Shown piece by piece: positions 13,043 to 59,432 of a DNA stretch of 64,000 bases. The notes under the pieces are model-generated. The model saw nothing but the letters and a program-made list of their open reading frames with translations. It was not told where the DNA came from and searched no databases. Numbering within the stretch: the stretch's first letter is position 1; each line of letters opens with the position of its first letter. This DNA is from a bacterium (GTDB lineage Bacteria > Electryoneota > RPQS01), in the NCBI GenBank assembly GCA_016703065.1, contig JADJCU010000003.1, forward strand, positions 457,045-521,044, in the 5' to 3' direction. The translations under genes and the position numbers were made by a program.

Positions 13043-13118
13043 GGCGCGTTCGTCTAGGGGTCTAGGACGCTGGCCTCTCACGCCGGTAACACGGGTTCGA
13101 ATCCCGTACGCGCTACCA
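13043..13118 (+). tRNA. tRNA-Glu (anticodon CUC), CCA encoded
   Basis: Manual cloverleaf: acceptor GGCGCGT/ACGCGCT (G1-U72 wobble), D arm GTCT/GGAC, anticodon stem CTGGC/GCCGG with loop CTCTCAC, and T arm ACGGG-TTCGAAT-CCCGT. 76 nt. Closely resembles canonical bacterial tRNA-Glu. Confidence 0.9.
13104..13116 (+). repeat. attL-like core (tRNA 3' end) CCGTACGCGCTAC
   Basis: Identical 13-mer recurs at 59379-59391. Confidence 0.6.
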
Positions 13119-14689
13119 TGCGCAACAATGTTGCGAACTTGATCGTCAGAACCTCCACCCAGTCCGGTGGAGGTTTTTATTTTTACGTTACTTATCAATT
13201 CAAATTGAATCAGGATGCGATCATCTTTTTGCTTGGTCAGCCGCACTTCCTTCACAAGCACCCGTATCGCCTTCCTACGGTCTTCAGGAGACATTCCTAG
13301 CCACAATGTCCAAAAGTACTGGTAAGAGTCCCGCAAGTCGTCTAGGTTGCTTGAAGGCTGCTTCAATGCCTCTATCGTGACATCCATATCTTGGATTCGT
13401 TGATCCATGCCCTGAATTGCACTGTTGACATCGCGAATCCGGCCAAAGATATTGTCCCGAACATCGTTAGAGGTCGGACTTTCGAGTGCAACCATCAAAT
13501 TTTCAAGTTTGCGCCGTTCTTCAGCGACGTTTCGAACCACTTGGTCACGCTGTTCCTTCAACGCGTTAACTTCTTCATCGCGATTCCCACTAGACTTGTC
13601 CAGAACTGATTTCAATAGTGTTTGATTCACTGACAATAAACGGAGCAGTGCCACACCAATTGCTTCAACATCAACACTACTGACCTGCTTCAATGGGCAT
13701 ACCGATGACGTACGTTTCAATGCATTTGGCATCGATAATAGGTGTGTGCCTTGCCATTCTTGTGTGCCCTGTACGGCGTCATTACTGCATTGCAATGCCC
13801 ACATCGAATGAACGATGAAAACAATGCCTCGTTAGGCAGTGTTTTGTTGAAGTAGTGGTTGACTCCGCGTGTTCTCAGCAATGCTTTCCACCCTCTGGAA
13901 CGTCGATACATCTATTATCGCAGTGTGAACACCGGGAACGAACTTCTTAGCATCAATCGGGTCACGAAATTTCCCAATATAAGCTGGGTTTTGAAGAATC
14001 CGTAGAATTCCTTGTGCTGACCACGGATTGCTCTTTCGTGACCGCAGTCCTTCGCGATTGAATACTGCCGTGATTTCATAGCTGGATTTCCCACCAAGGT
14101 ATTCATCGAAGATTCGCTTGACTACAGTCGCTTCTTGGTCGTCAACACAGCCTTCCGTTTTCACTCTTGTATCCAAACGGAGTAGGCCCACCACGCCACT
14201 CACCACGTGCGATTTTTGCACGCATCCCTTCGGTTGTACGTTTTCGGGTCATCTCGCGCTCAAACTGTGCAAAGGCAAGCAATATGTTTCGCATTAACTC
14301 ACCTTCCGGCCCCTTGGTCCCAAAGATACCTTGATCTACAGGGTAGAATTCGATCCCAAGATCAACCAGCGTCTGATTCGTATTCAGAAAATCAACGATG
14401 CTGCGGCTGAAGCGGTCCACTTTCGTCACCACGATCAACTCGAATTTCCTTCCTTCGCATCTGCAAACAGTCGTTGTAGGCTGGGTCTTTCCATTGTGCC
14501 ACCGCTTGCGACATCTTTATAGATTTCGACAATGTCATGGCTTTCAAACTTACAATACTCTCGGCATCGAATCTCTTGGGTATCTAAGCTTCCCCCTTCC
14601 TCCCTATCCTGTTGATCCGTACTGACGCGGCAGTAGATTGCGACCCTGCGATTCTTTCGTTCTTCTGATAGCTTATTGCGCTGCTTCAT
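13119..14689 (-). pseudogene. Large serine recombinase (resolvase/invertase N-terminus, recombinase domain, zinc ribbon, coiled coil), fragmented
   Basis: Five consecutive ORF pieces (14435-14689, 14142-14438, 13832-14221, 13717-13911, 13031-13804). Motifs: VAIYCRVSTDQQ (catalytic Ser), VTKVDRFSRS, GGPTPFGYK, CGHCNAVM...YYRC. The break at about 14445 is an A-run indel. The last piece runs antisense through the tRNA, so the true 3' end is uncertain. Confidence 0.85.
13150..13185 (+). terminator. Rho-independent terminator immediately after tRNA-Glu
   Basis: 10-bp stem AACCTCCACC/GGTGGAGGTT with loop CAGTCC, followed by TTTATTTTT. Confidence 0.75.
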
Positions 14690-14875
14690 GACTTTCTCGC
14701 TTCGTGCGGGACGGATAACGGCTTCTTAATGCTCACTAATTTAGTGGTTCGGGAAGACTACTGCAAGGGCTTCCGCTTGTTTCTTATGCCGTGATTCTGG
14801 CATAAGAATTTACAGAAGCAAGAGCTCTGCATTGTGCGGGGCTCTTTTCGTTTACAACCCCCTAAGGAGTCTCCC

Positions 14876-15088
14876 ATGAAAGTCAAAGTCCTCTGCCTTG
14901 GCCGCTCGGCTAAGGAAATCAACGTCAGTGACGGCACCACCGTCGAACAGGCCATCGCGGAAGCTGGGTTCCCGAAGGATTCCAGTTACACCCGGCACCT
15001 GAACGGCAGTCCGTGTTTCGATACGGATATCTTGGTCGAAGGCGCGGTGCTCACCCTGGTGCCACAAGTGAAAGGCGGGGGTTGTTAG
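14876..15088 (+). CDS. Ubiquitin-like beta-grasp protein (ThiS/MoaD-like), C-terminus ...VKGGGC
   Basis: ATG at 14876, 6 nt after AAGGAG. 70 aa with a ThiS-like pattern (MKVKVL...DGTTVEQAI...ILVEGAVLTLVPQVKGG). First gene of the Ubl/E2/JAB/E1 cassette. Confidence 0.75.
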   Translation: MKVKVLCLGRSAKEINVSDGTTVEQAIAEAGFPKDSSYTRHLNGSPCFDTDILVEGAVLTLVPQVKGGGC

Positions 15089-15166
15089 ACAGCGTTCCTG
15101 ACTGTCTACCAATTCAGGGGAGGGCTGCGGTTCAAGTAACCGTGGCCCTCTCTTTCCTCCGGTGGA

Positions 15167-16273
15167 ATGCATATGATTGAACAAATCAGAACCCTGATCA
15201 GGTTCTACGAACAGAAGTGGCATGTGCCGATTACCTTGATGAATCAAGACATGGACCTGCATTGTTGGCACGAAGTTGGAATTGCTGTCCGCGTTAATGC
15301 GGATCCTGATTCAGCATTCTCCAAGAACATCGCAGGTGATCCACTTGTGATGGAATCAGTGCTTGTAGGCAAGGTCAACGCAAGTTGGCTTGTGTTGTAC
15401 GGTGCGCCACATATAGATGTAACTTCAAACATCCTTGACGCACATCTTCCGCGTATGTGCCGCGCGTTTAGAAAACGTCAAAGGGAAACCTTGATTGACA
15501 CCATGCAGACTGTTGCTGCCGAACGAAAGCATGAACTCGCAGTTTCGCTGCGTGATGACAAGTATGAACTCGAACGACTGTGTATGCAAGTGATGACACT
15601 GTCGCGGAAGATTGAAGGTGACCGCGAGATACTGAATATGTTCAGTAGAGCGCCAGAATTCATTAAGGGCAAGGCGACGCGGACATTCGTGGAGATGATG
15701 AAGCTGGTGCCAAGTTGCTATTCACATATCAACGTCGTCGACAAGTCTGTGCTCGCCGAAACGTATCCGATTACATTGGAACACGATGGACGAAGTTACG
15801 ACTTTGATCCGTATGTGGTTGAAGTAGATCTTGATAAGGGCAAGGTGTTAATAAGCGGCGGCACCGAATGCAACGGATACATTCATCCACACTGCACCGA
15901 TGATCCGAATAACATCTGTTGGGGAAATGTCGGTCATCTTGTTTCACGATTGACAGGCGAACTTGATTTGCATGGATTGCTTCAGCTGGTGCATCAGTTT
16001 CTGCACTCCTACAACAACAGCGACCCATTCCAGAAGATCGAGAAGTGGGATCCTGACTTCGTTGAGGACAACGAAGACGATGACCCGTACTGTTCCTGGT
16101 GCGATGACTACGGACACGACATTTCAGATTGTGAATCCTGTTGGTGGTGTGAACACTGTCAGCAATACGATGATCACGATGCCGATGAATGCCCTAATCA
16201 CCCAAAAGATGAAGACGAAGAAGAGGAGGATGCCGATGCAGAACTTGCAGAGGACACAGCGTCAGCCGGTTGA
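15167..16273 (+). CDS. E2 (UBC)-like protein with a long N-terminal extension and a Cys/His-rich, poly-acidic C-terminal tail
   Basis: 368 aa. YIHPHCTDDPNNICWGNVGHL resembles the E2 HPN...Cys catalytic loop. The tail is DPYCSWCDDYGHDISDCESCWWCEHCQQYDDHDADECPNH followed by DEDEEEEDADAE. Sits between the Ubl and JAB genes. Confidence 0.55.
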   Translation: MHMIEQIRTLIRFYEQKWHVPITLMNQDMDLHCWHEVGIAVRVNADPDSAFSKNIAGDPLVMESVLVGKVNASWLVLYGAPHIDVTSNILDAHLPRMCRAFRKRQRETLIDTMQTVAAERKHELAVSLRDDKYELERLCMQVMTLSRKIEGDREILNMFSRAPEFIKGKATRTFVEMMKLVPSCYSHINVVDKSVLAETYPITLEHDGRSYDFDPYVVEVDLDKGKVLISGGTECNGYIHPHCTDDPNNICWGNVGHLVSRLTGELDLHGLLQLVHQFLHSYNNSDPFQKIEKWDPDFVEDNEDDDPYCSWCDDYGHDISDCESCWWCEHCQQYDDHDADECPNHPKDEDEEEEDADAELAEDTASAG

Positions 16274-16952
16274 TGCTGGCGTGAAGATTCAAGTTGAGGC
16301 TGAGGCCATGCAGAAGCTTTGGTTGTGGACTGATTTTGCCAAGGGTGAAGTCAGTTGCCTTGGCCTTGTCGATGAAGTAGTTAGCTCGGAAACTGGCCGG
16401 ACAACGGCATTAATTGTAACTGACTTCTTTCTCGTGAAACAGCAGTGCACCTATGAAGAAACGGACATGGACGTAGCTGATATTGCGCGGCTGATTGCTG
16501 AACTTGAATCAAAAGGAATTGACTCGCGTAAGCTTCGTTGTTGGGCTCACTCGCATGGCAGCATGTCAGTCTTCTGGAGTGGTCAAGATGAATCATGTAT
16601 CAGCGGGCTCGCCAACAACGAATGGTTGCTTTCCCTCGTTGTCAACAAGCGTCGTGATACACAGATGCGTCTGGATCAGTTCCATCCCAGTCACATGTAC
16701 ATTCCTGATGTTCAGTGGGAGGTGAAATATCCACTGGTGGACGGTCTCGCAGTAGCATGCTTTGATGAATTCAAAACCAAAGTGCGCGAGACAACGTTTC
16801 TAAAGCGAACTCGCGAGGATCAATTGGTCAGGCGCGACATGATTCTCGATGAACTTGACGAAGCCAGCGCACGCGGCGCTTTGACCATGGAGGAACTTGA
16901 TGACGAACTGAATTGGCTGGGGATTGAACGTGACGACTTTGAACAATATTAG
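16236..16952 (+). CDS. JAB/MPN+ (JAMM) metallopeptidase, putative Ubl-processing or deconjugating enzyme
   Basis: HSHGSMSVFWSGQD equals the JAMM motif H-x-H-x7-S-x2-D. Start reassigned to ATG 16236 (GGAGGA 6 nt upstream), which overlaps the E2-like gene by 38 nt. Confidence 0.8.
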   Translation: MQNLQRTQRQPVDAGVKIQVEAEAMQKLWLWTDFAKGEVSCLGLVDEVVSSETGRTTALIVTDFFLVKQQCTYEETDMDVADIARLIAELESKGIDSRKLRCWAHSHGSMSVFWSGQDESCISGLANNEWLLSLVVNKRRDTQMRLDQFHPSHMYIPDVQWEVKYPLVDGLAVACFDEFKTKVRETTFLKRTREDQLVRRDMILDELDEASARGALTMEELDDELNWLGIERDDFEQY

Positions 16953-16960
16953 GAGACCGA

Positions 16961-17617
16961 ATGAACGACATGCGATTTCTAAGACAGCAAGATGTTGTCG
17001 ATGCAGACAAGTTAGCCAACTTGTTTGTAACGTTGATCGGTCTCGGGAGCATCGGTTCGGTCTCGGGATTGTATCTCGCCAAGATGGGCGTCGGCAAGCT
17101 GACCTGTTTCGATGCCGATTTTGTGGACATCCACAATGTCAGCAATCAGGCGTATGGGATGTCTGATGTAGGTCTGATGAAGGCAGATGCATTTGCAAAT
17201 CTGGTTGAACTACAGACAGGCGTGCTGCCAAACACCGTTGGTCTGCAATACGATGGCCGTGAACTATCAGGTGTCGTCATCAGCGCAGTTGACAGCATGG
17301 CAAGTCGCTTGGCAATCTGGAAGGGAATTCGAGAGCAGGCTGCGGTGCAGCTCTACATCGATTCGCGCATGGCGCTGAACACTATGGATGTGCACATCGT
17401 GCGGCCACAAGTTCGAACTGAGAGAATCAGCTACGCGCAGACACTTGTTTCAGACGATCAGACGTTGCAAGAACCATGCACCGCACGGACGATTTGTTAC
17501 TCGCCTTTGATGGCTGGGAGTGTAATCTGTTCTCTCGTGAAGCGGTTTATTTGCGACGAACAGGTGCCATCGCGTGTCATTCTCGATCTGGCAACGATGA
17601 CTTTGCTGGCAAGTTAG
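16961..17617 (+). CDS. ThiF/MoeB-family E1-like adenylyltransferase (short form)
   Basis: 218 aa with LIGLGSIGS (GxGxxG), CFDADFVDIHNVSNQ and ISAVDSMASR. AGGAG RBS upstream. Confidence 0.8.
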   Translation: MNDMRFLRQQDVVDADKLANLFVTLIGLGSIGSVSGLYLAKMGVGKLTCFDADFVDIHNVSNQAYGMSDVGLMKADAFANLVELQTGVLPNTVGLQYDGRELSGVVISAVDSMASRLAIWKGIREQAAVQLYIDSRMALNTMDVHIVRPQVRTERISYAQTLVSDDQTLQEPCTARTICYSPLMAGSVICSLVKRFICDEQVPSRVILDLATMTLLAS

Positions 17618-17625
17618 CCAGCACT

Positions 17626-17648
17626 AGATAGGGGCAGCCCTATCTTTT
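17626..17648 (+). terminator. Terminator closing the Ubl cassette
   Basis: Stem AGATAGGG/CCCTATCT with loop GCAG, followed by TTT. Confidence 0.6.
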
Positions 17649-17781
17649 AGCCGTGAGGTGGCCGCCGTTGCCTTCCGTAAGCATCCTTGTAAAAAGCTTC
17701 TTTCAATATGAATTGTTACATTCTTTCACAATTTGTCATTTCTCGTTAGTGTAAGCAATTGATTCTTATTGTCTTAGAATT

Positions 17782-17796
17782 TGGACCAAAGATTGC
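17782..17796 (+). promoter_or_regulatory. Candidate sigma-54 promoter (-24/-12) upstream of cusC
   Basis: TGGACCAAAGATTGC has correct GG-N10-GC spacing and a TTGC -12 element, about 30 nt upstream of the cusC ATG. A sigma-54-dependent activator is encoded in the same cluster. Confidence 0.45.
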
Positions 17797-17825
17797 CTTA
17801 ACCGTTATCAATTATACTCAACGCT

Positions 17826-19183
17826 ATGTCATCATTACACTCAAAGTGGAATAAACAAGCTATGCTGGTCCGTGCCGTCCTGTTGCCAACTCTAACTGTG
17901 CTTTGCGCGATGAGTTCATTTGCACAAGGGGTTGACAGCGATAGCCTGCTTGCCAGCTATGTTGCTGAATCGTGGAAGACTCATCCCAACATCGATCGCA
18001 TGCGAGCCATGATTGCTGTGGAAAGTAGCCGTGCTACCATGAACAACTCGTGGATGAATCCGGAATTGCGCGCCGGACTGATGAATATTCCAGAAAGCTT
18101 TGATGCCCATGCGGATCCGATGACTATGTTTCAGATTGGCGCAATGCAACAGATTCCTTTCCGGGAAAACTTAAAGCTGCAAGGCGAGCAGGTGAAGCTC
18201 GGGTCAACGCCGCAACGGCCACTCTTGACCAAGAGCGATTTCGGATGGCAGCGATGGTCGCGATGACTTATTACGACTTAGCCGCCGCGCTGGAAACGCG
18301 CCAAACGCTGGAACAAGGACTCGTGCTGACAAAACAGGCTGTTGACGCTGCAACATCGTTGCTTTCCACAGGCAAGGGATCACAGGCAGAAGTGTTGCGG
18401 GCAGGCCTTGAGCAAGAAGAGTGGAATCTCAAATTGCTTGCGAACGCATCGGAGACCGACCAAAAACGCGCAGCGCTAGCCTATGCGATCGGACGGACCG
18501 AGGTCAGTACACTTACAGACCCTGTTCTTCCGAGTAGCTTGCCACCAATGATTGACCTTGACGCAGGACTTGCCTTGGCTGAAAATGCATTAACTCCGCA
18601 AGTCAAAATCGCACTGGCGCAATCACAAGCTGCCGAATTTGAACTTCGAAGAGCCAAGCTTGAGTATTGGCCCGACATCAAGTTAGAGCTTGCCTATGGA
18701 ATAAGAGGGGCGTTGAACGGTACGGGAGCAGATCCCCATACAGGCGAACCGATTTCACAGTCACTCAAGCAAGATAACATGGTCACTTTTGAGGTGTCCG
18801 CTCCTGTCCCGCTGTTTTCCCGCGGCAATCAACAAGCAAAGATAAACGAAGCTCGTGCTATGAATCGTAGCCGACAAAGTGAGCAAATAGAATCAGTGCT
18901 CAACCTGCAGCAGGAATTGCGGTTCGTTCACGCGGAATTCACGGAAACGATTAATCAGTCCGAAGTGAATAGCCGAGTTTTGCAACAAGGAGAGGCAGCC
19001 TGGCGTTCTGCGCTTGTGGACTATCAAGCCGGGATTTATCCCTACATGGGACTCTCAGAAGCGCGCATGATTTTGGTCATGGCTCAGATTGAATCTGTTA
19101 TGTATCGCGCAAAAGCCTGGGCAACGTATCAACAGTGGCAAAGCCTGCTTGGAAATTACACCGTTGACGCAACGGAACAATAG
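17826..19183 (+). pseudogene. cusC: TolC/CusC-family outer-membrane efflux protein, one frameshift
   Basis: Pieces 17826-18266 and 18245-19183. The join at about 18165 (CCTTTCCGGG) restores ...QQIPFPGKLKAARRAGEARVNAA...; a C-run indel. Confidence 0.8.
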
Positions 19184-19192
19184 GAAGTCAAC

Positions 19193-20749
19193 ATGAAGAC
19201 AGCATCAACAAAATGGCTTCCATGGTTAGCGCTTGTTATCATTGCGAGTGTCGGCCTTTACATCTGGTTATTTTGGGGCAACAGCGACCATACCGGAACC
19301 GACTCAACGCAATCATTGACTACCGAAATTTACACATGTCCCATGGATCCGCAGGTTCAAGAGGATAAGCCCGGAAAGTGCCCAATTTGCGGCATGAACC
19401 TCGTTCTTAGGAAAGCCGATTTGACTCAACCAAAGAGTGATAAGTCGGAGAGCCCCGAGAAGGAAACGAATTCTGAAAGCACTGAAAAATATCAGTGTCC
19501 GATGCACCCGGCCATCGTTCAGGATCATCCGGGTGATTGCCCAATCTGCGGAATGAAGCTTGTTAAGATGAAGGGGTCGGCATCTGACCAATCGAAGCCG
19601 AGTTCGTCATCGTCACACAAAGTGGCCTTCTATCGCTCGCCGATGGACCCAAACCAGACATCTCCAGTACCCCGCAAGGATGAGATGGGTATGGACTATC
19701 TTCCCGTATATGAAGAGGATTCAAGTGGCGACACTGATGTTAAAGACCGTGCAGCGGTTGAGATTGACCCGACACGACAGCAATTGATCGGACTGCGAAC
19801 GGCGAAGGCCGAGCGAGCGGGCATTGCTGGAGGCTGGCGAACTGTCGGGCGCGTCGAAATTGACCCGACAAGAGTTAGCCGCATCAATGTCAAAGTAACA
19901 GGATTCGTTGAGCACGTATTTGTAGATTTCGTAGGTCGTGCTGTGAAGCGGGGAGAGCCATTATTCACACTTTATAGCCCTGATTTGCTTGCTGCACAAC
20001 AAGAGTATGTCCTTGCATTAGAGAATCGCAAGAACAACACGTATGACGGTCAGGCAGCTATGTATGACGCCGTTATATCTGCAGTGCGAAAGAAGCTCAA
20101 GAATTGGGACGTGCCCGAGTCCGCAATCGCTCGATTGGAGGAGACAAGGGAAACAACTAAGGCATTGACTTTCACCTCTCCGGTCAGTGGAGTTGTAACT
20201 TCGAAAGATGTAGTCGAGGGGGCAACACTTGAACCTGGTGCTGTTCCGTACGAGATAACTGATTTGAACGTAGCTTGGGTTATGGCGGATGCGTACCAGC
20301 TTGATCTCGCACAAGTACATATGGGAACACGAGCATCCATGTCATTCGACGCTTTGCCTGATCGTGTGATTATCGGCACAGTGGCATTTGTTGATCCGAT
20401 TCTGGACGTGCAAAGCAGGACGGCCAAAGTTAGGCTTGAAGTACAAAATGAAGACGGTGAACTGAAGCCAGGCATGTTTGGAGAAGTGCTGTTTAGAGGA
20501 GAAAGCCGCGAGTCATTGACGATTCCGTCTGATGCCTTGATTCCGACTGGAAGGGGATTCTATGTCTTTGTCGCATTGGGCGAGGGTAGGTTTGAACCAC
20601 GTTCCGTCAAGCTTGGAGAGAAGTCGAGCGACAGAGTTGAAATTATAGAGGGTCTTAGCGAAGGAGAATCAGTTGTAACGCGTGCCAACTTCCTCGTAGA
20701 CTCAGAATCGTCTTTGCGCGCTGCGCTATCAGCGGTGGAAGGCAACTAG
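19193..20749 (+). CDS. cusB: RND efflux periplasmic adaptor (CusB-like) with two N-terminal CPxCGM heavy-metal-binding domains
   Basis: YTCPMDPQVQEDKPGKCPICGMNL and YQCPMHPAIVQDHPGDCPICGMKL, followed by an MFP/HlyD-type barrel-sandwich region. Confidence 0.85.
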   Translation: MKTASTKWLPWLALVIIASVGLYIWLFWGNSDHTGTDSTQSLTTEIYTCPMDPQVQEDKPGKCPICGMNLVLRKADLTQPKSDKSESPEKETNSESTEKYQCPMHPAIVQDHPGDCPICGMKLVKMKGSASDQSKPSSSSSHKVAFYRSPMDPNQTSPVPRKDEMGMDYLPVYEEDSSGDTDVKDRAAVEIDPTRQQLIGLRTAKAERAGIAGGWRTVGRVEIDPTRVSRINVKVTGFVEHVFVDFVGRAVKRGEPLFTLYSPDLLAAQQEYVLALENRKNNTYDGQAAMYDAVISAVRKKLKNWDVPESAIARLEETRETTKALTFTSPVSGVVTSKDVVEGATLEPGAVPYEITDLNVAWVMADAYQLDLAQVHMGTRASMSFDALPDRVIIGTVAFVDPILDVQSRTAKVRLEVQNEDGELKPGMFGEVLFRGESRESLTIPSDALIPTGRGFYVFVALGEGRFEPRSVKLGEKSSDRVEIIEGLSEGESVVTRANFLVDSESSLRAALSAVEGN

Positions 20750-20751
20750 CG

Positions 20752-23700: not shown

Positions 23701-24078
23701 GCTGAGACGGGCGTTTTCATGTTGTTATTCCTTGATCTTTCGCACAACGAAGCAAAGGCGCGAGGGCAATTGCGAACCACGGGAGACTTAGTTGAAGCGA
23801 TTGTACACGGAGCCGTCAAGCGTGTTCGTCCGAAAGCCATGACCGTATGCGCCGCTTTTATTGGACTACTCCCCATTATGTGGTCTACCGGGGCAGGTTC
23901 AGACCTGATGAAACGTGTGGCAGCGCCAATGGTAGGAGGATTGGTTACCTCTTTTGCCTTGGAATTGCTGGTCTATCCAGCGATCTACTATCTTTGGAAA
24001 CGCAAATCAGTCGTTCCCGGCCCGGAATCGCCTGCTGACAACGGCGAGAATTCCGCGACAACACTTGCTCCATGCTAA
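20752..24078 (+). pseudogene. cusA: CusA/CzcA-family heavy-metal RND transporter interrupted by an in-frame TAG
   Basis: 906-aa and 198-aa ORFs are in the same frame, separated by TAG at 23470-23472 in the context WSG*YENMLRVKERLK, where the family has WSGQ(F/Y)E. Confidence 0.9.
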
Positions 24079-24140
24079 GATTCCAATCATAACAAAAATT
24101 CACTTCGCCACACAACGACCTAACGTCAAAGGGCTCCCCT

Positions 24141-25628: not shown

Positions 25629-25692
25629 CATAGCGATATGGAACATTCTATAACGGTCTCTGGTCTAATAAACAACAGAAAGAGAAACGACA

Positions 25693-27229: not shown

Positions 27230-27309
27230 GCATCAATTTCTGCCCGGAATGGTGCGTGTAGACGAACTCAGCAACGAGCGAGAGACGACTTTACCCTTAC
27301 CTACAACTT

Positions 27310-29103: not shown

Positions 29104-29104
29104 T

Positions 29105-30427: not shown

Positions 30428-30482
30428 TGCTGTCGGCAAGCAGTGTTAACTGGGGAATGTGAATTAATCGAAAGGAGAGATC

Positions 30483-42173: not shown

Positions 42174-42197
42174 AAAACGGAAGCATTCTATTGCAAA

Positions 42198-48151: not shown

Positions 48152-48367
48152 AAAAAATCTTCCTTTCCGATGCGTTCATTATAGCACCTTCCCGGAAGCT
48201 CCGCAACCCCTAAACGGGTCGCCAACGCTAAGTTCAGTCCGGGCCGCCCGACTGAACTTACAACACTACATTACACCTAATAATACTGATCCTTTTGTGC
48301 CAAATGCGCTGACGGAAAACAGTGTAAACACCAGGGTGACCTTAACTGCGCCAACCTAAATTGCCCG

Positions 48368-48679: not shown

Positions 48680-48705
48680 CGACCCAACAAAGATAGAAAA
48701 CGAAT

Positions 48706-50985: not shown

Positions 50986-51141
50986 CAAGAAACGGCGATA
51001 GCCACCTTCTTGCGCGGGCCAACCCACCACCCTGTTTCCTTTGTCGTCTAGATGCCTTTGGGCGTAGAGTTCTTATCGTCGAGCCTCGCCAAAGTTCGAC
51101 AAGTATGCAAAGAAAACGTTAGGAAAATCAAAACGCAACAC

Positions 51142-53658
51142 ATGGCAGAAAAAGAAGCTACAGCCCGAATCAAGATTAACAGGCTACTCGAAGAATCGGG
51201 TTGGCGTTTTTTTGCTGATGATAACGGACCGGCCAATGTTCAACTTGAACCAGCCGTAAAGCTGAAGTCACATGACTTGGATGCCCTTGGCGAAGATTTT
51301 GATAAGGTCGAAAGGGGTTTCGTTGACTTCCTACTTTTGAATGACCGTGGCTTTCCTTTCATCGTGCTCGAAGCGAAGTCCGAAAGTAAGGACCCGTTAG
51401 ATGGCAAGGAGCAAGCACGAAAATACGCGAAGTCGCTAAACTGCCGATTCGTTATCCTTTCTAACGGCAACTTACATTACCTGTGGGACTTGGAACGGGG
51501 TAACCCAAGCACAGTAACAGCGTTTCCGCGACCAGAATCTGCACAGGGTTATCAGAGAACGGTTCCAGATCCTAATAAACTCGTTAACGAGCTTGTTACC
51601 ACTGACTACATCGCAGTATCCCAGCGGCCCAACTATGCAAACGAAGTTGGGTGGAAGAATGAATCAGAACGCAATCGCTTCATAGAATCCAACAAGCTTC
51701 GATTCTTGCGCGAATATCAACTAAAAGCAATCCGAGAATTGCAGGATAACGTTGGGGAAGGCAAGGACAGATTCCTATTTGAAATGGCAACCGGTACGGG
51801 AAAAACTTTGACTGCTGCGGCAGTTATCAAGTTGTTCTTGCGAACGGGTAACGCACAACGTGTATTGTTCTTAGTGGACCGTCTTGAACTGGAGGACCAG
51901 GCATGGAAGAACTTCGTTGCTTACCTGTCTAATGACTACAAATCTGTTATCTACAAAGAGAATCGTGACGACTGGCGTCGCGCTGAAATTGTAGTTACAA
52001 CTGTTCAGTCGCTACTGTTCAACAACAAGTACCAGCGGTTGTTCTCACCAACTGATTTTGATTTGGTTATCTCGGACGAAGCACATCGATCCATCGGTGG
52101 GAACGCCAGGGCAGTATTTGATTATTTCATTGGCTATAAGCTTGGTCTTACAGCAACGCCCAGAGACTACTTAAGGAACTTCGACAACGCCGATCCAAAT
52201 GTACGCGATCCACGCGAATATGAACGGCGCGTTCTGCTCGACACTTATCGCACGTTTGGGTGTGAGGACCAGCTACCTACATTCCGGTACTCCTTACTTG
52301 ACGGTGTAAGAGACGGATTCTTGATCAATCCAACTGTTGTGGATGCAACGACTGGTGTTACAACCCAGTTACTAGCCGATCAAGGATTCGTTGTCACTTT
52401 CAAGGATGATGAAGGAGCAGACCAAGAAGAATCATTTGAGCATCGCGACTACGAAAAGAAGTTCTTTGCACCAGGAACAAATGAACTATTCTGCAAGACG
52501 TACCTTGAAAAAGCTCTACGCGACCCGATCAGCAATGAAATAGGGAAGTCAGTTATTTTTGCTGTCAGCCAGAATCACGCATCCAAACTGACGCAGATTC
52601 TGAATGTCATGGCTGACAAAATGTATCCGGGGAAGTATCAATCCAATTTTGCTGTTCAAGTTACATCAAGGATAACTGATGCCCAGCAGTTTACGATTAA
52701 CTTCACTAACAACAAACTTCTTGGCTCGGCGAACTTCATGGAAAGCTATCGCACGAGCAAGGCACGAGTTTGTGTGACTGTTGGTATGATGACAACGGGG
52801 TATGACTGTCCTGATATTCTCAACCTCGGTTTGTTCAGACCTATCTTCTCCCCGACCGATTTCATTCAGATCAAAGGACGAGGAACCCGTAAGCACGAAT
52901 TCACGGTTGACCTGTTGGATAACAATCTGAAAGCGACCATTGGGGAACAACCAAAATCAGCTTACAAACTGTTCGACTTCTTCCGTAATTGCAAATACTT
53001 TGAAGAAGATTTCAACTATGATGAAGTAATTGCGTTACCTGTGCCCTCGCCAAGTCCAAGAGGTGAAGATGTCGGACCGGTGGTGCATCTTGATGGTTAC
53101 GAACACGCTGGAGAAGACATCATTGCTTCAATCACCGAGCAGACTATTGGTCTTGAAGGAATGAAGATTGATTGGATGTTCTTCGAGAAGTTCGAAGACA
53201 AGGTTCGCGAGCATCGCGAGATTGCCAAGGCGGTTGAAGCTGGGCAATGGGATAGAGTAGTTGATATCGTGAATAAGGAAGTCTTGAATCAACCGGCAGA
53301 ATTTTACACGCTTGATAAACTGCGCCGAGCAGCAGCAGTAGACCGCCGCATTACGCTGCGAGAGATACTTGAAAAAGTGTTTGGCCTAATTCCAAAATTC
53401 AAGTCTAAAGATGAACTACTTGAAGAAGAGTTCGCGAAGTTTGTTGCCGACTACAAACCTGAAGAACCCACATCAATTCCTGCGATCAAGAATTACTTCA
53501 AAGCCTATGCTACGAGCAATCAGATCAGACATATTATCGACACGAAGCAACTGACTGACCTTGCAACAAATCCAACTTTTACAACCCGCGACTTCCGTGC
53601 GGTTCCTGATCGATATCGAATATTAGTCCGAGTTACATCAAGGACTATGTTTCCTTGA
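51142..53658 (+). CDS. hsdR: Type I restriction enzyme R subunit (HSDR_N plus SF2 DEAH helicase)
   Basis: Start ATG 51142 after AGGAAAA. EATARIKINRLLEESGWRF N-domain. MATGTGKT (motif I), VISDEAHRS (DEAH) and LGLTATP (III). The last ~10 codons are probably frame-shifted (an alternative frame reads ...LVPSYIKDYVSLNQFAS*). Confidence 0.85.
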   Translation: MAEKEATARIKINRLLEESGWRFFADDNGPANVQLEPAVKLKSHDLDALGEDFDKVERGFVDFLLLNDRGFPFIVLEAKSESKDPLDGKEQARKYAKSLNCRFVILSNGNLHYLWDLERGNPSTVTAFPRPESAQGYQRTVPDPNKLVNELVTTDYIAVSQRPNYANEVGWKNESERNRFIESNKLRFLREYQLKAIRELQDNVGEGKDRFLFEMATGTGKTLTAAAVIKLFLRTGNAQRVLFLVDRLELEDQAWKNFVAYLSNDYKSVIYKENRDDWRRAEIVVTTVQSLLFNNKYQRLFSPTDFDLVISDEAHRSIGGNARAVFDYFIGYKLGLTATPRDYLRNFDNADPNVRDPREYERRVLLDTYRTFGCEDQLPTFRYSLLDGVRDGFLINPTVVDATTGVTTQLLADQGFVVTFKDDEGADQEESFEHRDYEKKFFAPGTNELFCKTYLEKALRDPISNEIGKSVIFAVSQNHASKLTQILNVMADKMYPGKYQSNFAVQVTSRITDAQQFTINFTNNKLLGSANFMESYRTSKARVCVTVGMMTTGYDCPDILNLGLFRPIFSPTDFIQIKGRGTRKHEFTVDLLDNNLKATIGEQPKSAYKLFDFFRNCKYFEEDFNYDEVIALPVPSPSPRGEDVGPVVHLDGYEHAGEDIIASITEQTIGLEGMKIDWMFFEKFEDKVREHREIAKAVEAGQWDRVVDIVNKEVLNQPAEFYTLDKLRRAAAVDRRITLREILEKVFGLIPKFKSKDELLEEEFAKFVADYKPEEPTSIPAIKNYFKAYATSNQIRHIIDTKQLTDLATNPTFTTRDFRAVPDRYRILVRVTSRTMFP

Positions 53659-53684
53659 ACCAGTTCGCCTCCTAAAGGAATTGA

Positions 53685-55030
53685 ATGCTTGACACTGATA
53701 CAAAGCGTCGAATAGACTCGGCCCGAGATATTTTGGTAGGGAAGGTGCCCGACCCGAAGTCGCAGGTTGAACAGATTACTATTGCGCTGATCTACAAATT
53801 CATGGATGACATGGACGCCGAAGCCGAAGAGCTTGGTGGCAAGCGAAAGTTCTTCGAAGGCGAATATGCCCGATATGGCTGGGCGAAGTTGATGCGTTCA
53901 GGTTTGGGGGATTTGAAACGCTGAACCTGTATGCCGAAGCAATTGCAAAGATGCCCGAGAATCCAGGCATACCACCGCTTTTTCGTGACATCTTCAAGAA
54001 TGCATATCTGCCGTATCGCGATCCCGAAACACTAAAGAGCTTTCTGAAGATTATTGATGAATTCACGTATGACCATTCGGAGAAGCTGGGTGATGCCTTT
54101 GAATACTTGCTTTCGGTACTTGGGTCGCAAGGTGAGGCTGGGCAGTTTCGTACGCCGCGACATATTATTGATTTCATCGTCAGCATCGTTGACCCAAAGA
54201 AGAATGAAACCATTCTGGATCCTGCATGTGGAACCGCAGGTTTCTTAATTTCAGCTTACAAGCATATTGTTAGGAGCAACACAGATGCAAAGGGCAATGT
54301 GACCCTGACACCTGACGAGAAGGGCCGCATAGCCCAAAACTTAAAGGGTTATGACATCTCGCCGGACATGGTAAGGCTATCGCTTGTCAATCTTTACTTG
54401 CACGGTTTCACCGATCCACACATCGTTGAATATGACACGCTAACGTCCGAAGAAAAGTGGAACGAACTTGCTGATGTGATTCTCGCCAATCCACCCTTCA
54501 TGTCACCGAAGGGGGGCATCAAACCGCATAAGCGTTTTTCTGTGCAATCAAAGCGCAGTGAAGTTCTGTTCGTAGACTACATGGCTGAGCATCTTACTCC
54601 TACTGGTCGTGCCGGCATTATTGTGCCTGAAGGCGTAATTTTTCAAAGTGGTGGCGCCTACAAAGAACTTCGCAAAATGCTCGTCGAAAACAGTCTGGTC
54701 GCAGTCATCTCACTACCGGCGGGAGTGTTCAACCCATACTCCGGTGTCAAGACCTCGATTCTGATTCTTGACAAGTCACTTGCAAAACAAAGTGATAGCA
54801 TAGGCTTTTTCAAAATTGAAAATGATGGCTTTGGGCTTGGTGCCCAGCGACGTGCGCTCGACACATCCGACCTACACCCGTGCAAAAAAGAAATTTCAAA
54901 ATTCTTGCATAGTCTTCGGAACCGCGAAGACGATGGCACCATGTCATTTGACCACGGCGTCGTTATACTGAAGTCAAGAATTGCAGAGGATGCTGACTGC
55001 AATCTAAACAGCGAACGTTTCCGAACAAGT
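53685..55030 (+). pseudogene. hsdM: Type I R-M N6-adenine DNA methyltransferase (M subunit), one frameshift; reads through into the S subunit
   Basis: Pieces 53685-53924 and 53951 onward (G-run break near 53915). DPACGTAGFL (motif I) and LANPPFM (NPPF, motif IV). C-terminal ...DCNLNSERF. There is no stop before the S-type TRD. Confidence 0.85.
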
Positions 55031-56205
55031 GTTTCCGTTTCGTCTTCTTACCCACTTGTCCCCTTGTCCAGCGTTGCGCAAATAAGAAATGGTTTCGCCT
55101 TCAAAAGTGAGGAATACGTAGCACATGGCCTGCGTGTGATCCGAATAAAAAATGTGCAGAGAGGCGAGGTAATAGACGACGACCCAAAGTTCATTTCATC
55201 CGACCGAGCTTTAGAGTTTGCAGATTTTCAATTGAGGTCAGGGACATATTGATGTCGCTAACGGGGAACGTAGGTAGAGTAGGCAGGTTGAAACGAGAAC
55301 ATGAACCGGCAGTGTTGAATCAAAGAGTCGCACAAGTTCAGCTGATTGATCCGTTACTTTGCATGCCAGAATACACTTTTGCGGTATTGAATACCGACAA
55401 GTTTATCCATAATGCGGCGGCGGCGTCAAGCGGTGTTGCGCAAGCAAACTTAAGTTCCAATTGGGTGAGTTCCTACCAAATCCCCCTCCCCCCGCTTGAA
55501 GTCCAGAAGGAAATCGTAGCAGAGATTGAAGGCTATCAGAAAGTCATTGATGGGGCTCGTGCGATTGTAGAGAATTATCGGCCACGGATTGTGATTGATC
55601 CGGAGTGGCCGCTGGCACCGATTGGCGAAATCAGTACAAGAATTCAATACGGATTGTCGAATCCTCTAAACACTGAAAATGTGGGCTATAAGACTTTCCG
55701 AATGAACGAACTTGTAAATGGCCTGTGCGTTGACCGGGGCGATATGAAATGCTCCGATATTGGTGAAACAGAGTTTGAAAAGTATCAACTATTATCGGGA
55801 GACATTCTTTTCAATAGAACGAATAGTATTGAACACGTTGGGCGGACTGGCATTTTTAATCTCAGTGGAGATTATTGTTTCGCTTCCTATTTGATACGAC
55901 TTTCGGTTAACCACGCGAAGTCGAATCCGTTCTATGTAAATGCTTTCATGAATACCGAAGGTTTTCAGAAAGGTATCAAGCAGTATGCGAGCAGAGCAAT
56001 TGGCCAAGCCAATATAAACGCAAAGTCGCTCGCTGCTTATTCAATACCTCTACCTCCACTTGGACTCCAGGACGCAATCGTAGAAGAGATCGAAGCCGAG
56101 CAATCACTTGTAGCTGCGAATAAAGAATTGATCGAGCGCTTCGAGAAGAAGATTCAGGCAGCCATTGCACGTGTTTGGGGTGAAGATACGGCAAATACAA
56201 AGTAA
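55031..56205 (+). pseudogene. hsdS: Type I R-M specificity (S) subunit, fused in frame to hsdM and carrying one frameshift
   Basis: YPLVPLSSVAQIRNGF (TRD1 start). G-run break at about 55245 (SGDILMSLTGNVG). Conserved spacers LPPLEVQKEIVAEIEGYQKVID and LPPLGLQDAIVEEIEAEQSLV. Confidence 0.8.
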
Positions 56206-56221
56206 CGGGATATAAGAATCA

Positions 56222-56848
56222 ATGCGCAAATATGTAACCGATACTGAGTGGGCGACAAGACAGTTGATCGCACTTGTATACGATGAGAAGAAACGTTTAT
56301 CGCTTTTTCAGACACAGCTCGACCATATCAAAAAGACCCGAGACTTCCTTTACTGGGACTTTAGTAGTTCTGATCTGCAAGAGGATTTTATTGACTCGCA
56401 GGTGCAGTTCAAATATGTAAAGCTAGCAGAATACGTCAAGAATACACAGCCTTTGTACGAGGAAACGAAAGAGCAGGTAACCGAAATTGAAGAGCATATC
56501 GCGAACCTAGACCAATCTTATAGAGTTATTTGCGGCGCTATTCTTCAAATTGCGAAGCAAGGAATTTCCACGGTTCACGGACGACTTCACAAATGCCCTA
56601 CTGGACGGCCTATTGGGTCAACGGCTCTTAGCGTGGTTATTTGGCAGGCACGAAATCAGACGATGCACTACGAGATGAACAAATATGACCCACCAGTTTG
56701 TGACTGCTTCGCGATTCTGGAAAGAGAATGTGGCCCGCAATTCTCGCTCGCTTCCCACGGCGAGGAGAATCTGGCACATCACGTTATTGAGCTGCTTGGA
56801 TGGACCGATTACTCAGCCTTTGAAACAGACATGTTCTCTTTGGCATAA
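56222..56848 (+). CDS. Hypothetical protein, fourth gene of the R-M transcription unit
   Basis: 208-aa ORF beginning 16 nt after hsdS, with no terminator in between. No motif recognised. Confidence 0.5.
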   Translation: MRKYVTDTEWATRQLIALVYDEKKRLSLFQTQLDHIKKTRDFLYWDFSSSDLQEDFIDSQVQFKYVKLAEYVKNTQPLYEETKEQVTEIEEHIANLDQSYRVICGAILQIAKQGISTVHGRLHKCPTGRPIGSTALSVVIWQARNQTMHYEMNKYDPPVCDCFAILERECGPQFSLASHGEENLAHHVIELLGWTDYSAFETDMFSLA

Positions 56849-56874
56849 CAGAAGACTTTACAGTCTTCTGTTTC
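56848..56874 (+). terminator. Terminator after the hsdR-M-S-orf208 unit
   Basis: 10-bp stem ACAGAAGACT/AGTCTTCTGT with loop TTAC, followed by TTCG. Confidence 0.6.
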
Positions 56875-57284
56875 GTGCCAACCATTCCATAGGGGATTAA
56901 TCACGTCGTGAGCCCCCAAATCTGTCACAGGATTATGATGATAGGATCACAACAGGACTTATTGAAGCGTTGCTCGATGCGCTTACTCTGGAATGGTCTG
57001 ACAGAGGAGATATTACCGCCGATTCAGTGCGGGAGTCGTGTGTTGCAGAAGTCGCACAGGCATTGAACTGGAGTGTGGAGAAAACGAAAGCGTGCATCGA
57101 AGAGAGGATACGAGCAGAGTGAGAAACTCCCGCTGTGTTAACGCCGTGCATGCGGTGAATCAATTAAACGAAGGTGGGCAATACTTACAAATCATGCGAA
57201 AAGTCAACTGTGCTATCATGCTACTAATCGTTTAACTCATGGTGCAAATGAGTGAAATATTCAGCAAATTAGGCTGACCAACTG

Positions 57285-58712
57285 ATGGAAGATGTCATAT
57301 TCTTTCTTCTGCCAGACGTACCACTATTGGCGGCGTTTGCATTGCTCATGTGGATTGTGGATTGGTCGTTAAGAAGACAGCACAAACAAGCTATTATTGA
57401 GTGGATGCATAACGAAGAGCTTAGGCTAAAAAGCCTTCCCGTCAAGCACTGGCAAATAGGCTTAGCCACCGTCCTAGTCAATAACTGGGATAAGCTGATG
57501 AGTGCTGTGCCTACATTGGACACAGCAAAAGAAAGAAAGGGATCCCTTCATAAGAAAGGGGCATTGAGCAAGGCGGTTTTCATATTCAATTGCACATTTG
57601 CTATCGTTGTGCTTATGCCGTTCGTACCAGTTTTCTGGTTTGTGATGATTCTTATCAAGAACTGGGCTGCGCGCAACTCTGCGGATGAAAAACATAAACC
57701 AATTCCAGCGAAATCAATTCCTATTCGAACACTCGTTGCTACATTGAGAACACCGGCAATACTTCTAAAGGCAATGAAACAGCAAGTACAAGAGCAAACG
57801 GACGATAAGCCTGGTTGTGCATACTATATCGTCGGTCTTGTTCGCGTTGCGATGATTATCGGGTTCTACTTTCTTTTTGTTCCGTTACTAATTATCTATG
57901 TCTTTGAAGTGAAAGCAATTGCTGGGTGGTTCGGCAAAGTGGTTGCGGTAATACCAGTTGTGATGCTCGGAAGCCTCGGTTTGTTGTTAACCACTTTTGC
58001 TGTGTCTTTCGTCATTTGGTTACCCATGGTCTTCGTCAACAAACTCCGTAAACTGTCCGTGGTGCCTAGATTTCTTCTAATAGAGCTGAGCAAGAGAGCA
58101 GCACTAGTCTACAAGTTCGCGGTGGTCGCATGCCTTGTAAGCGTAGCACTTACCGCTCTCGGATTGATGATCGGCACAATCTTCTTCGAAAACTTTGGAC
58201 AAACGGGTTGGATGGTCAAGGACGGCCCAACCGCTTCGCCCGCTTATCCACTTTGGCTAACGACGATTAATTTCTTCTTTGACTATCTCGCTTGCGTGAT
58301 AACAATTGGGGCGGCACGAAAAGCAATTTCATGGAACGGCTATCTAGGATCGACAGGCGTAATCGTCGTCATTGTTTGTAGTTTAATTGCACTAGCGCAG
58401 GCCGCATTTCTTGCGGCAGTCGACATATACTTTTTGCTGCCCAAACACGCTGCTGCAAAATTCGACCTTGCTCACTGGCTAACGAACAACCAAACATTAC
58501 TGCCACTAATTTGTACAGCATTGGTTCCAATAACGCTTTACATGATGTCATGGATGTTTGTGGCTTGGGTTGCGAAGCCGCTAATCAGAGTTGCCGGTTA
58601 TACTGTTGGCCTTCTAAGCGAGAAAGAGAAAAGCCCGTTCCTTGAGCTTGGACTCGCGTTTTGTATGCTTTACCTGCTCGTAAAATGCGTCAATAGGATT
58701 CTCGTTAGCTGA
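57285..58712 (+). CDS. Polytopic membrane protein of unknown function
   Basis: 475-aa ORF with about ten long hydrophobic segments. No recognisable catalytic motif. Confidence 0.55.
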   Translation: MEDVIFFLLPDVPLLAAFALLMWIVDWSLRRQHKQAIIEWMHNEELRLKSLPVKHWQIGLATVLVNNWDKLMSAVPTLDTAKERKGSLHKKGALSKAVFIFNCTFAIVVLMPFVPVFWFVMILIKNWAARNSADEKHKPIPAKSIPIRTLVATLRTPAILLKAMKQQVQEQTDDKPGCAYYIVGLVRVAMIIGFYFLFVPLLIIYVFEVKAIAGWFGKVVAVIPVVMLGSLGLLLTTFAVSFVIWLPMVFVNKLRKLSVVPRFLLIELSKRAALVYKFAVVACLVSVALTALGLMIGTIFFENFGQTGWMVKDGPTASPAYPLWLTTINFFFDYLACVITIGAARKAISWNGYLGSTGVIVVIVCSLIALAQAAFLAAVDIYFLLPKHAAAKFDLAHWLTNNQTLLPLICTALVPITLYMMSWMFVAWVAKPLIRVAGYTVGLLSEKEKSPFLELGLAFCMLYLLVKCVNRILVS

Positions 58713-58737
58713 CTGCAAAATCTATCAATTTTACCAT

Positions 58738-59310
58738 ATGAGCTCGAAGCTATCTATTGATTCCGACGATGATGGTCAACGAATTCACCGTCTGGTCTTC
58801 GGCAAAACCTACGCCGATCTACGAGCGGATTTTGATATTGATTCAACGTTGGACGTTGAAGATGATTCTGGTCCCGTTAAGGCCGAGTATGGCCACACGT
58901 ACTATGTCCTACAGCGTCTGGAAACTTCGAATCCAGACGAGTTCACGCGCTTCATTGGCAAATTAGAGGCTGTAACTGGACTTGATGACCTTGATTTCAC
59001 GACTCGCTGTCGATTGGTCTACACGCTTCTGGCTAGCACAATCGACTGGAAGGACACCCGGGCTGGCAGATTGGCATCCCACGGAACGATTGCAGAGATG
59101 CCATATGGATCGGTTCCCCCTCTTGATCTTGATTTTCAGGCAATGACAGACAGCGTTAGGGCGTTCCGGCCATCGCCGGAGCAGGCGACGAATTGGGGAG
59201 AAGTCTTTTCCCACGGGCTAAGGCAGCCGAAAGCTCCTCCTCAAGCAGCTCAAGAAATTGTTCGCGGAGGAGGATCGAAGATAAGGACGCGGAAGAAACG
59301 AAGTAGTTGA
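58738..59310 (+). CDS. Hypothetical soluble protein (acidic N-terminus, basic tail)
   Basis: 190-aa ORF, 25 nt downstream of the membrane-protein gene. Ends GGGSKIRTRKKRSS. No motif recognised. Confidence 0.45.
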   Translation: MSSKLSIDSDDDGQRIHRLVFGKTYADLRADFDIDSTLDVEDDSGPVKAEYGHTYYVLQRLETSNPDEFTRFIGKLEAVTGLDDLDFTTRCRLVYTLLASTIDWKDTRAGRLASHGTIAEMPYGSVPPLDLDFQAMTDSVRAFRPSPEQATNWGEVFSHGLRQPKAPPQAAQEIVRGGGSKIRTRKKRSS

Positions 59311-59362
59311 TTGGCCGTCCGGCGGAACGCTTTGTTTTCTGAAGCTTTACCGTCCACCGGAA

Positions 59363-59391
59363 GGTTTGAATGTTCGTTCCGTACGCGCTAC
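59363..59391 (+). repeat. attR-like degenerate copy of the tRNA-Glu 3' portion
   Basis: GGTTTGAATgttcgtTCCGTACGCGCTAC compared with tRNA GGTTCGAATCCCGTACGCGCTAC. The exact 13-mer is at 59379-59391. Confidence 0.6.
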
Positions 59392-59400
59392 GAATAATTA

Positions 59401-59432
59401 ACGGGTTAGCCTTGCGGCTGACCCGTTTTTTC
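59401..59432 (+). terminator. Strong terminator directly after the attR-like repeat (probably the original tRNA terminator)
   Basis: 11-bp stem ACGGGTTAGCC/GGCTGACCCGT (1 mismatch) with loop TTGC, followed by TTTTTCG. Confidence 0.75.

Follow-up and report, generated by a model that had tools for sequence, protein, structure and literature searches.

The analysed window was a 64,000-nucleotide (nt) stretch of contig JADJCU010000003.1 (positions 457,045 to 521,044 of the forward strand; GenBank assembly GCA_016703065.1) from a bacterium of the Electryoneota (RPQS01). In this window the gene of a large serine recombinase, now a pseudogene, lies against an intact tRNA-Glu(CUC) gene, and the tRNA's 3' end recurs at the far side of an island carrying resistance and defence genes. 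A preliminary description made from the sequence had proposed an integrated element between these points, and region 13117-59391 very probably constitutes one 46,275-bp integrative element of a family present in this genus. The features of the two junctions, in window coordinates, were as follows (ORF, open reading frame; att, attachment site).

13043-13118, + strand: intact tRNA-Glu(CUC) (ARAGORN; Rfam RF00005, 58.7 bits), chromosomal arm of the left junction (attL)
13104-13116, + strand: core repeat copy 1, CCGTACGCGCTAC, covering the 3' strands of T-stem and acceptor, the discriminator and C74
13117-13141, + strand: element-side arm of attL (P'), CATGCGCAACAATGTTGCGAACTTG, with hairpin CGCAAC-AAT-GTTGCG and motif TGCGAAC
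13148-13187, + strand: element-borne terminator for the tRNA (hairpin and T-run 13148-13177), within antisense tail codons of the recombinase ORF
13031-14689, - strand: body of the large serine recombinase, a pseudogene in five ORF pieces, the last antisense through the tRNA
59377-59159, - strand: displaced 3' end of the recombinase, 73 codons (stop 59156-59158), antisense over the 3' end of a + strand gene
59363-59391, + strand: element-side arm of the right junction (P), GGTTTGAAT GTTCGTT, and core copy 2 (59379-59391)
59392-59432, + strand: original tRNA-downstream sequence (B' arm) with the native terminator (hairpin and T-run 59400-59427)

Within the window the 13-mer CCGTACGCGCTAC had two exact copies, 13104-13116 and 59379-59391, as had been described earlier, and no internal third copy could be found there with one mismatch allowed or, in another search, with as many as two substitutions. 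Two or more matches were obtained in 0 of 100 shuffles. The 3.09-Mb assembly contained three copies, all at tRNA-Glu-related places, the third being within a tRNA-Glu on contig C4; the 13-mer is thus not a frequent genomic word. The degenerate T-arm-like sequence noticed previously ahead of the second copy could be identified as GGTTTGAAT at 59363-59371, ahead of the repeat, and a terminator-like hairpin with a T-run was present after each copy (13148-13177 and 59400-59427). The displaced tRNA 3' fragment comprised 13 exact nt in the window and 15 nt in the related element of genome G001, plus a degenerate T-loop. Intact tRNA and displaced 3' fragment, in direct orientation, bound the island. 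The A+T-richer interior reported by eye was borne out by computation, with a G+C content of 0.55-0.60 on either flank versus 0.42-0.51 between the repeats; two G+C-richer patches were located inside the island at 37-40 kb and 45-48 kb, the latter including insertion sequence (IS) copies. The final two bases of the tRNA, the CA of CCA, are contributed by the element. The native, unoccupied form of this tRNA-Glu is without CCA and reads ...GCGCTAC, followed by TAAAAA. The crossover must fall inside core repeat copy 1.

Domain analysis of the recombinase revealed the resolvase catalytic domain PF00239 (51.5 and 68.2 bits for the window pieces, 132.6 bits for the G001 orthologue), with the motif VAIYCRVSTDQQ and its serine nucleophile present in the window copy. 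The domains PF07508 (Recombinase) and PF13408 (Zn_ribbon_recom) scored 65.1 and 32.1 bits in the window and 67.9 and 38.0 bits in G001, all above the cut-off, and the zinc ribbon was followed by a long helical stretch. The full-length sequence matched the SPbeta SprA/YokA structures (9dxh, E 1.5e-19, residues 19-485) as the closest solved structures. The reading frame is not intact, as four frameshifts could be located relative to the G001 and G007 genes, near 14452 (-1), 14148 (-2), 13868 (+1) and 13726 (-1), none of them in homopolymer runs. The end of the ORF runs antisense through the terminator and the tRNA (...GSAYG, then IRTRVTGVRGQRPRPLDERARGT), which confirms what had been read from the last ORF piece. 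No tyrosine-integrase domain (PF00589) was detected in the window, even when stops were read through; this lack, like the island boundaries, could be observed directly. The earlier statement that a fragmented serine recombinase is the only recombinase held for the site-specific class, but DDE transposases (IS481 family, and IS3 fragments) also lie inside the island.

Intact orthologues of the recombinase (L020, 12871-14553, and L025) were present at the same tRNA-Glu in G001, a metagenome-assembled genome labelled Calditrichaeota, and in G007. Both ORFs run antisense through a terminator and the tRNA, and both carry the Resolvase, Recombinase, and Zn_ribbon_recom domains above cut-off. The G001 element measured 25.7 kb and was delimited by the same 13-mer in the same orientation; no tyrosine integrase could be found in or near it. 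The P' arm was kept in both genomes, with a hairpin and T-run at the equivalent place, and this left terminator was specific to the serine-recombinase elements. The G001 P arm was equal, with equal spacing (GGTTTGAAGATTCGTC, then the core), and approximately 90 nt inside the second 13-mer of G001 were homologous to the right end in the window, including GGAAGGTTTGAA..TTCGT. and the core. Beyond the right repeat, the sequence AACGGGTTAGCC...GGCTGACCCGTTTTTT follows tRNA-Glu or its displaced fragment in G001, G003, G004, G005, G006, G008, G011, and contig C4. The left terminator is thus element-borne, while the right one is native in at least eight relatives, so the two are not duplicates, contrary to the preliminary description.

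Translated comparison revealed a backbone common to the window and G001, consisting of the recombinase with its adjoining ubiquitin-like cassette, the primase region, type I restriction (weakly), and the last gene, with the same two ends and the same order. The extra 20 kb of the window was cargo, namely the copper/silver cluster and IS copies. Both ends thus move with the recombinase, and the window holds one element with more cargo and not an array. The preliminary description had instead preferred tandem accretion on account of two replication modules, that is, at least two independent elements arriving in succession at the tRNA, with the 13-mer pair bounding the array. Two primase-helicase genes (34678-37635 and 39103-41973) and a patchy composition do agree with accretion, as does the use of the same tRNA by two kinds of element in relatives; in G003 the cassette also rides on a tyrosine-integrase island, which shows exchange of modules among co-resident islands, and the DNA at 59.4-61 kb, missing from relatives, could be an older remnant. 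However, neither an internal 13-mer nor a second integrase was present, the smaller G001 element has the same ends and backbone order, its single primase gene matches both window primase genes, and the copper/silver cluster, together with IS copies that are also present elsewhere in the genome, accounts for the difference in size. We regard accretion as unlikely.

The G001 and G007 recombinase genes were 90-94.5% identical at the nucleotide level, far above the 76.7% of a core gene, which indicates recent transfer of the recombinase module; the adjacent cassette showed 55-84% identity. A different gene was located upstream of the tRNA in G007. In G002, G003, G004, G005 and G006, other sequence occupied this tRNA, without a serine-recombinase-element junction or match; the direct search for the recombinase domain covered G003, G004, G007, G009, and G011. 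These data bear on a third view, in which the region is an old, vertically inherited variable segment next to a tRNA and the short repeat arose by chance. The window recombinase and cassette are approximately 70% identical to those of G001 and G007 at the nucleotide level, near the 75-77% of core genes, as vertical descent would predict. Against this stand the restriction of the 13-mer to tRNA-Glu-related places in 3.09 Mb, the G+C step, the lack of the island at this tRNA in most sister species searched, and the G001/G007 recombinase genes being far more alike than the core genes. Vertical inheritance is already contradicted by these results, and hardly any weight can be given to it.

The same tRNA was also used by islands of another kind. 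In G003 and G004 the tRNA 3' end was duplicated as a 42-nt repeat at a distance of 24 or 42.5 kb from the complete gene, with a tyrosine integrase at one junction, and similar fragments of 42-43 nt were present in G009 and G011. G009 and contig C4 have a tyrosine integrase adjoining the tRNA, although no displaced repeat was seen on C4. The junction sequences of these islands differed from those of the serine-recombinase elements. In G003 the ubiquitin-like cassette was cargo of the tyrosine-integrase island, without any serine-recombinase remnant, which indicates that modules pass between islands at this hotspot. It had been considered earlier that a tyrosine integrase has been lost. The serine recombinase would then be a passenger or multimer resolver that lies beside the tRNA by chance. 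The hotspot character of tRNA-Glu(CUC) for tyrosine islands throughout this genus and family (G003, G004, G009, C4) and the duplicated tRNA 3' end, their classic signature, speak for such a loss. Nevertheless, tyrosine islands at this tRNA leave 42-nt repeats and other junctions, PF00589 was missing from the window (also through stops) and from the G001 element, the right-end arm was kept between the window and G001 along with the recombinase, and a fixed-geometry overlap with tRNA genes was seen in 42 of 117 distant homologues, as given below. Loss of a tyrosine integrase is very improbable on this evidence.

Contig C4 was tried as an empty site and rejected, as its tRNA and native terminator are followed by a tyrosine-integrase element and the contig is indel-noisy. 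This 12.6-kb contig is a near-duplicate of the left flank (window 4241-13116) ending exactly at the tRNA-Glu, after which a tyrosine-integrase gene (C4:9133-9591) follows the native terminator. It differed from the main contig chiefly by indels, with 9 mismatches against 21 gap openings over 1.5 kb, and it looks like a poorly polished alternative haplotype with a different island at the same tRNA. On the other side of the island, 59392-61050 encodes a GNAT acetyltransferase and a hexapeptide transferase, with no counterpart in 24 relatives; homology to G003 begins only at approximately 61075, elsewhere in that genome. This segment could be what is left of an older island at this hotspot.

The G001 recombinase was used to scan genome, metagenome, and viral collections, which yielded only distant homologues, 27-39% identical. 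A total of 159 loci from the genome and metagenome collections were analysed, and 117 homologues (28-37% identity, many phyla) had a complete C-terminal match and enough flanking sequence. The recombinase ORF overlapped a convergent tRNA in 42 of these 117 (Asn-GTT 27, Gln 12, His 1, Glu 2), a count that includes the sister elements L029 and L030, which the script had binned elsewhere. The ORF crossed the att core in the window, in G001, in G007, and in 40 further homologues, and only one tRNA-adjacent ORF ended before the tRNA. On the element side, [T/A]GCGAAC could be observed 14-20 nt past the CCA in most tRNA-adjacent homologues, and the P' arrangement of the window, CA TGCGCAACAATGT TGCGAAC, matched them. 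Among 33 tRNA-adjacent loci, 24 had a GTTCG-to-CGAAC span of exactly 44 nt; spans of any other length were not encountered. Chance adjacency cannot explain such a recurrent overlap with fixed geometry. This clade-wide layout, the homologous ends in a sister species and the intact orthologues are all direct observations. Of the explanations offered in the preliminary description, targeting of the tRNA 3' end by the serine recombinase is supported by both the sister elements and the clade-wide overlap. We therefore hold with considerable confidence that the island was inserted at the tip of tRNA-Glu by a serine integrase, now broken, whose own gene was split by the insertion.

The genome of the window carries a second large serine recombinase on contig C5 (C5:230394-232008), 24% identical over the matched part and with one frameshift near C5:231500. 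It runs antisense into a convergent tRNA-Gln(CTG), and its ORF end, ...WLGNRDSNPD, is the tRNA 3' end read backwards. In six Planctomycetota loci (L052, L054, L072, L088, L096, and L106), a convergent tRNA-Arg lies at a constant distance of approximately 690 nt past the recombinase stop, which suggests that members of this subfamily have one small gene separating recombinase and junction.

When the two ends of the element were joined on paper, the recombinase frame continued beyond ...GSAYG for the 73 codons of 59377-59159. The displaced tail of G001 had equal length and an equal stop position, with 73% amino acid (aa) identity to the window tail. Within the 68 nt outside the overlap with the + strand gene (59311-59378), 10 of 16 substitutions fell on third positions of the minus frame. 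Divergence of the overlapping 155 nt was 28%, versus 38% upstream, and a hand count of the overlap gave approximately 68% conserved in the minus frame versus approximately 54% in the plus frame. In the integrated state the tail consists instead of residues read off the opposite strand of the tRNA, 23 in the window and 31 in G001. The 73-aa tail showed no homology to the tails of other recombinases. The conserved displaced tail is good, though not conclusive, support for a split gene because only two copies are available; the excised form would encode an enzyme of approximately 600 aa, as judged from the joined reading frame. For G001, the integrated form would have 560 aa and the excised one 529 aa followed by the 73-aa tail. 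The attachment site of the circular element (attP) would lie inside the recombinase gene, approximately 30 codons past the last conserved domain, so that recombination with the tRNA tip would split the gene. After integration the gene body would remain at the left end, with its natural last 73 codons 46 kb away at the right end, and the element would make the tRNA whole again, contributing a new terminator along with the CA of CCA.

The TGCGAAC of the P' arm is the mirror of the tRNA T-loop GGTTCGA, and the T-loop-like motif of the P arm lies 6 nt farther from the core than in the tRNA. Distances to the end of the 13-mer were 22 nt for the tRNA arm (from GTTCG), 22 nt for P' (to CGAAC), and 28 nt for P (from GTTTG). 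In the reconstructed attP, GTTTG and CGAAC are each 25 nt from a centre near CT 13113-13114 (hand-counted positions). From this predicted centre the tRNA arm extends 19 nt, and the B' arm is without a clear mirror motif, as judged from the two element copies. Symmetry of attP would put the centre 3 nt inside the 13-mer, which predicts a crossover near CT 13113-13114, within 2 nt on either side. A GTTCG at 20 nt was also tried as the mimic in the P arm and rejected because the centre would then fall outside the shared core. The element arms (approximately 25 nt) and the tRNA arm (approximately 19 nt) would thus be unequal, with the outer motif about half a helical turn farther out in attP, and both element arms would mimic the tRNA T-loop (GGTTYGA / TCGCAACC). 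An element arm longer than the chromosomal arm is the inequality described for serine integrases, and work on the LI integrase bound to attP reportedly found unequal att arms with attP the longer. The 13-bp repeat is best read as the inner half-site common to the P arm and the tRNA (B) arm, and not as a tyrosine-type scar. We infer the crossover position, and any assignment of enzyme domains to motifs, from this geometry. Recombination between attP and the chromosomal site (attB) by this enzyme is a prediction from sequence.

Several results weigh against insertion by a tRNA-targeting serine integrase. The right flank (59392-64000) lay beside this tRNA in 0 of 24 relatives, so no simple empty site could be shown among them, and the empty site is deduced from the conserved native terminator rather than observed in place. 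No excised circle or attP-bearing contig was recovered; the metagenome and viral scans gave only homologues of at most 39% identity. The 13-15 bp of identity that attP and attB share are long by the standards of serine integrases, and the arm-length model is built on two element copies only. An attP-like 50-nt spacing was not found among the homologues without a tRNA, and the far junction of two Nitrospira homologues gave no convincing repeat over 100 kb upstream. The window recombinase is broken and hence allows no statement on its activity, while the indel noise of contig C4 means that some of the frameshifts could be assembly errors.

Exchange of the recombinase tail may have a function of its own. 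It is conceivable, though rather doubtful, that the tail swap is a built-in state sensor and, separately, that the clade reads the near-universal tRNA T-loop on both arms. The full-length enzyme encoded by the circle (approximately 600 aa) would then integrate, and the integrated gene would give a tRNA-antisense tail with altered directionality or stability, as has been shown for Mx8 IntP/IntX of the unrelated tyrosine family. Reading of the T-loop would explain hops among tRNA-Asn, Gln, His, and Glu across phyla. We infer any such regulatory meaning from the layout.

The recombinase shares the Resolvase and Recombinase domains and the zinc ribbon with long helical stretch with SPbeta SprA, A118/LI, TP901-1, PhiC31, and Bxb1. 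In common with the large serine integrases of phages and islands, its gene is located at the extreme edge of the element, adjoining the att site, and on the predicted geometry its arms would be unequal, with the element arm longer. The present system differs in that the target is a tRNA 3' end whereas theirs is a protein-coding gene, in the 13-15 bp shared by attP and attB, in the position of attP inside the recombinase ORF, by which integration would swap the C-terminal tail, and in both element arms apparently mimicking the tRNA T-loop. Serine recombinases acting on tRNA genes have been described: Ghinet et al. 2011 (PMC3218068) found a tRNA-Leu gene to be the site of eight conjugative elements of mycobacteria that carry serine recombinases, and phiRSM (PMC4471427), cited by Ghinet et al., uses a small serine recombinase at the 3' 13 bp of tRNA-Ser; such integration is termed rare in both papers. 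Compared by description, these mycobacterial elements and phiRSM resemble the present element in the insertion of a serine recombinase into a tRNA gene, and phiRSM also in its 13-bp core at the tRNA 3' end, but the phiRSM enzyme is of the small resolvase/invertase type and not a large one. The available parts of these reports describe no recombinase ORF crossing the att site. According to Islander (PMC4383910), serine integrases were not known to target tRNA genes.

An attP within the integrase coding sequence, with integration creating a new 3' end, is known for the tyrosine integrases of Mx8 and SSV (PMC6070905, PMC4383910). The likeness to Mx8 IntP/IntX and the SSV integrases is one of layout only, as these belong to an unrelated enzyme family with a different, tyrosine-based chemistry. 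The literature search found this split-gene layout for tyrosine integrases only, and no large serine integrase with an ORF spanning attP. The island agrees with P4-type tyrosine islands, and with the Islander signature, in having an intact tRNA and a displaced 3' fragment in direct repeat, and with classical tRNA islands in its foreign composition, its resistance and defence cargo, and its hotspot behaviour. It differs from the latter in the lack of a tyrosine integrase and in a repeat of 13 bp versus 42 nt at this very tRNA. Thus, it is an island of a known general kind with ordinary cargo, associated with an enzyme type rarely credited with tRNA targeting.

Tools that map tRNA islands have assumed tyrosine integrases, explicitly so in Islander (PMC4383910), so that islands like the present one can be missed or credited to the wrong enzyme. 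As the cargo comprises copper/silver efflux, a copper ATPase, type I restriction, and the ubiquitin-like cassette, the mechanism bears on the movement of resistance and defence genes in poorly known phyla. An attachment site inside the element's own gene, with a tail that changes with state, could be a simple control of directionality or dosage. If the geometry has been read correctly, a clade recognising conserved tRNA features would offer landing sites that already exist in many bacteria. Genome engineering makes wide use of serine integrases, and the clade would then represent a set of them with conserved natural landing sites.

Gene calls inside the island were made from Pfam, PHROGs, PADLOC, and NCBIfam scans, with the following results.

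14834-17617, + strand: four-gene ubiquitin-like cassette (Pfam ThiS, ThiF; PADLOC E1-E2 models)
17826-32891, + strand: copper/silver resistance cargo, with the genes listed next
18245-19183, + strand: CusC-like
19193-20749, + strand: CusB
20752-24078, + strand: CusA, interrupted by TAG
24141-25628, + strand: beta-propeller
25693-27130, + strand: YHS/TRASH proteins
27310-29103, + strand: histidine kinase
29105-30427, + strand: sigma-54 response regulator
30483-32891, + strand: copper P-type ATPase
34678-37846, - strand: primase-helicase copy 1 (34678-37635, 985 aa, intact; phrog_47 DNA primase 1.3e-41) and a DUF5659 gene (Pfam)
39103-41973, - strand: primase-helicase copy 2 in pieces of 699, 286 and 114 aa (phrog_47 2.3e-38; AEP-TOTE)
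42638-43276, - strand: protein with a HicB/Arc-like DNA-binding domain
45281-48322, - strand: IS debris and IS copy (IS3-family fragments 45281-46328)
about 46708-48322, - strand: IS481-family element (transposase 46743-48206)
48706-56205, + strand: defence cargo, type I restriction-modification preceded by a 759-aa protein (AAA and pentapeptide matches, both weak)
51052-53658, + strand: hsdR
53951-55252, + strand: hsdM
55249-56205, + strand: hsdS
56222-59310, + strand: three genes of unknown function (208, 475 and 190 aa), no family matches

The cassette encodes a ThiS-like ubiquitin-like protein ending in GGGC, a 368-aa Cys/His-rich protein, a JAB-like protein (motif HSHxxxxxxxSxxD, read by eye from the translations), and a ThiF/E1-like protein. 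It resembles the Ubl/E1/JAB operons of mobile elements (Bil, 6A, and PRTRC type), with weak NCBIfam matches to ThiF, 6A-MBL cap2, and PRTRC ThiF and no curated model at cut-off. The cassette was conserved in G001, G007, and G003, adjoining the recombinase in the former two, while the copper/silver cluster was not in the G001 element. The N-terminal third of primase copy 1 and the DUF5659 protein were matched in G001; primase copy 2, whose last piece holds the AEP primase motif, matched G001rc 16217-18901. The last of the three genes of unknown function (190 aa) was also present in G001, with 61.6% aa identity over 185 aa and substitutions mostly at third codon positions. Pfam scans of approximately 45 ORFs, and PHROGs and NCBIfam scans of the ORFs submitted to them, revealed no genes for capsid, tail, terminase, relaxase, coupling protein, or type IV secretion; several ORFs were without any match.

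In cusA, an in-frame TAG (23470-23472) takes the place of the Gln expected in relatives, giving ORFs of 906 aa and 198 aa (…VVWSG, stop, YENM…). The IS481-family element has two further copies in the genome, with 98.5% and 96.8% identity. The frameshifts of the recombinase, the cusA stop, the fragmented second primase gene and the insertion of a host IS indicate a decaying, immobile island, and point to one that is no longer autonomous.

In the left flank, the membrane pyrophosphatase gene (5648-7883) was split into two ORFs, with approximately 56 nt near 6382 missing compared to G002 and C4; this may represent either a broken core gene or an assembly fault. ARAGORN called a second tRNA-Glu(CTC) of 91 nt at 6726-6816, which lies inside the pyrophosphatase ORF without Rfam support and is probably a false call. 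A 107-bp tandem repeat at 8223-8654 comprises four copies with 97% matches, and a 29-30-nt piece of its unit recurs at a spacing of approximately 146 nt on contig C2 (380892-381358).

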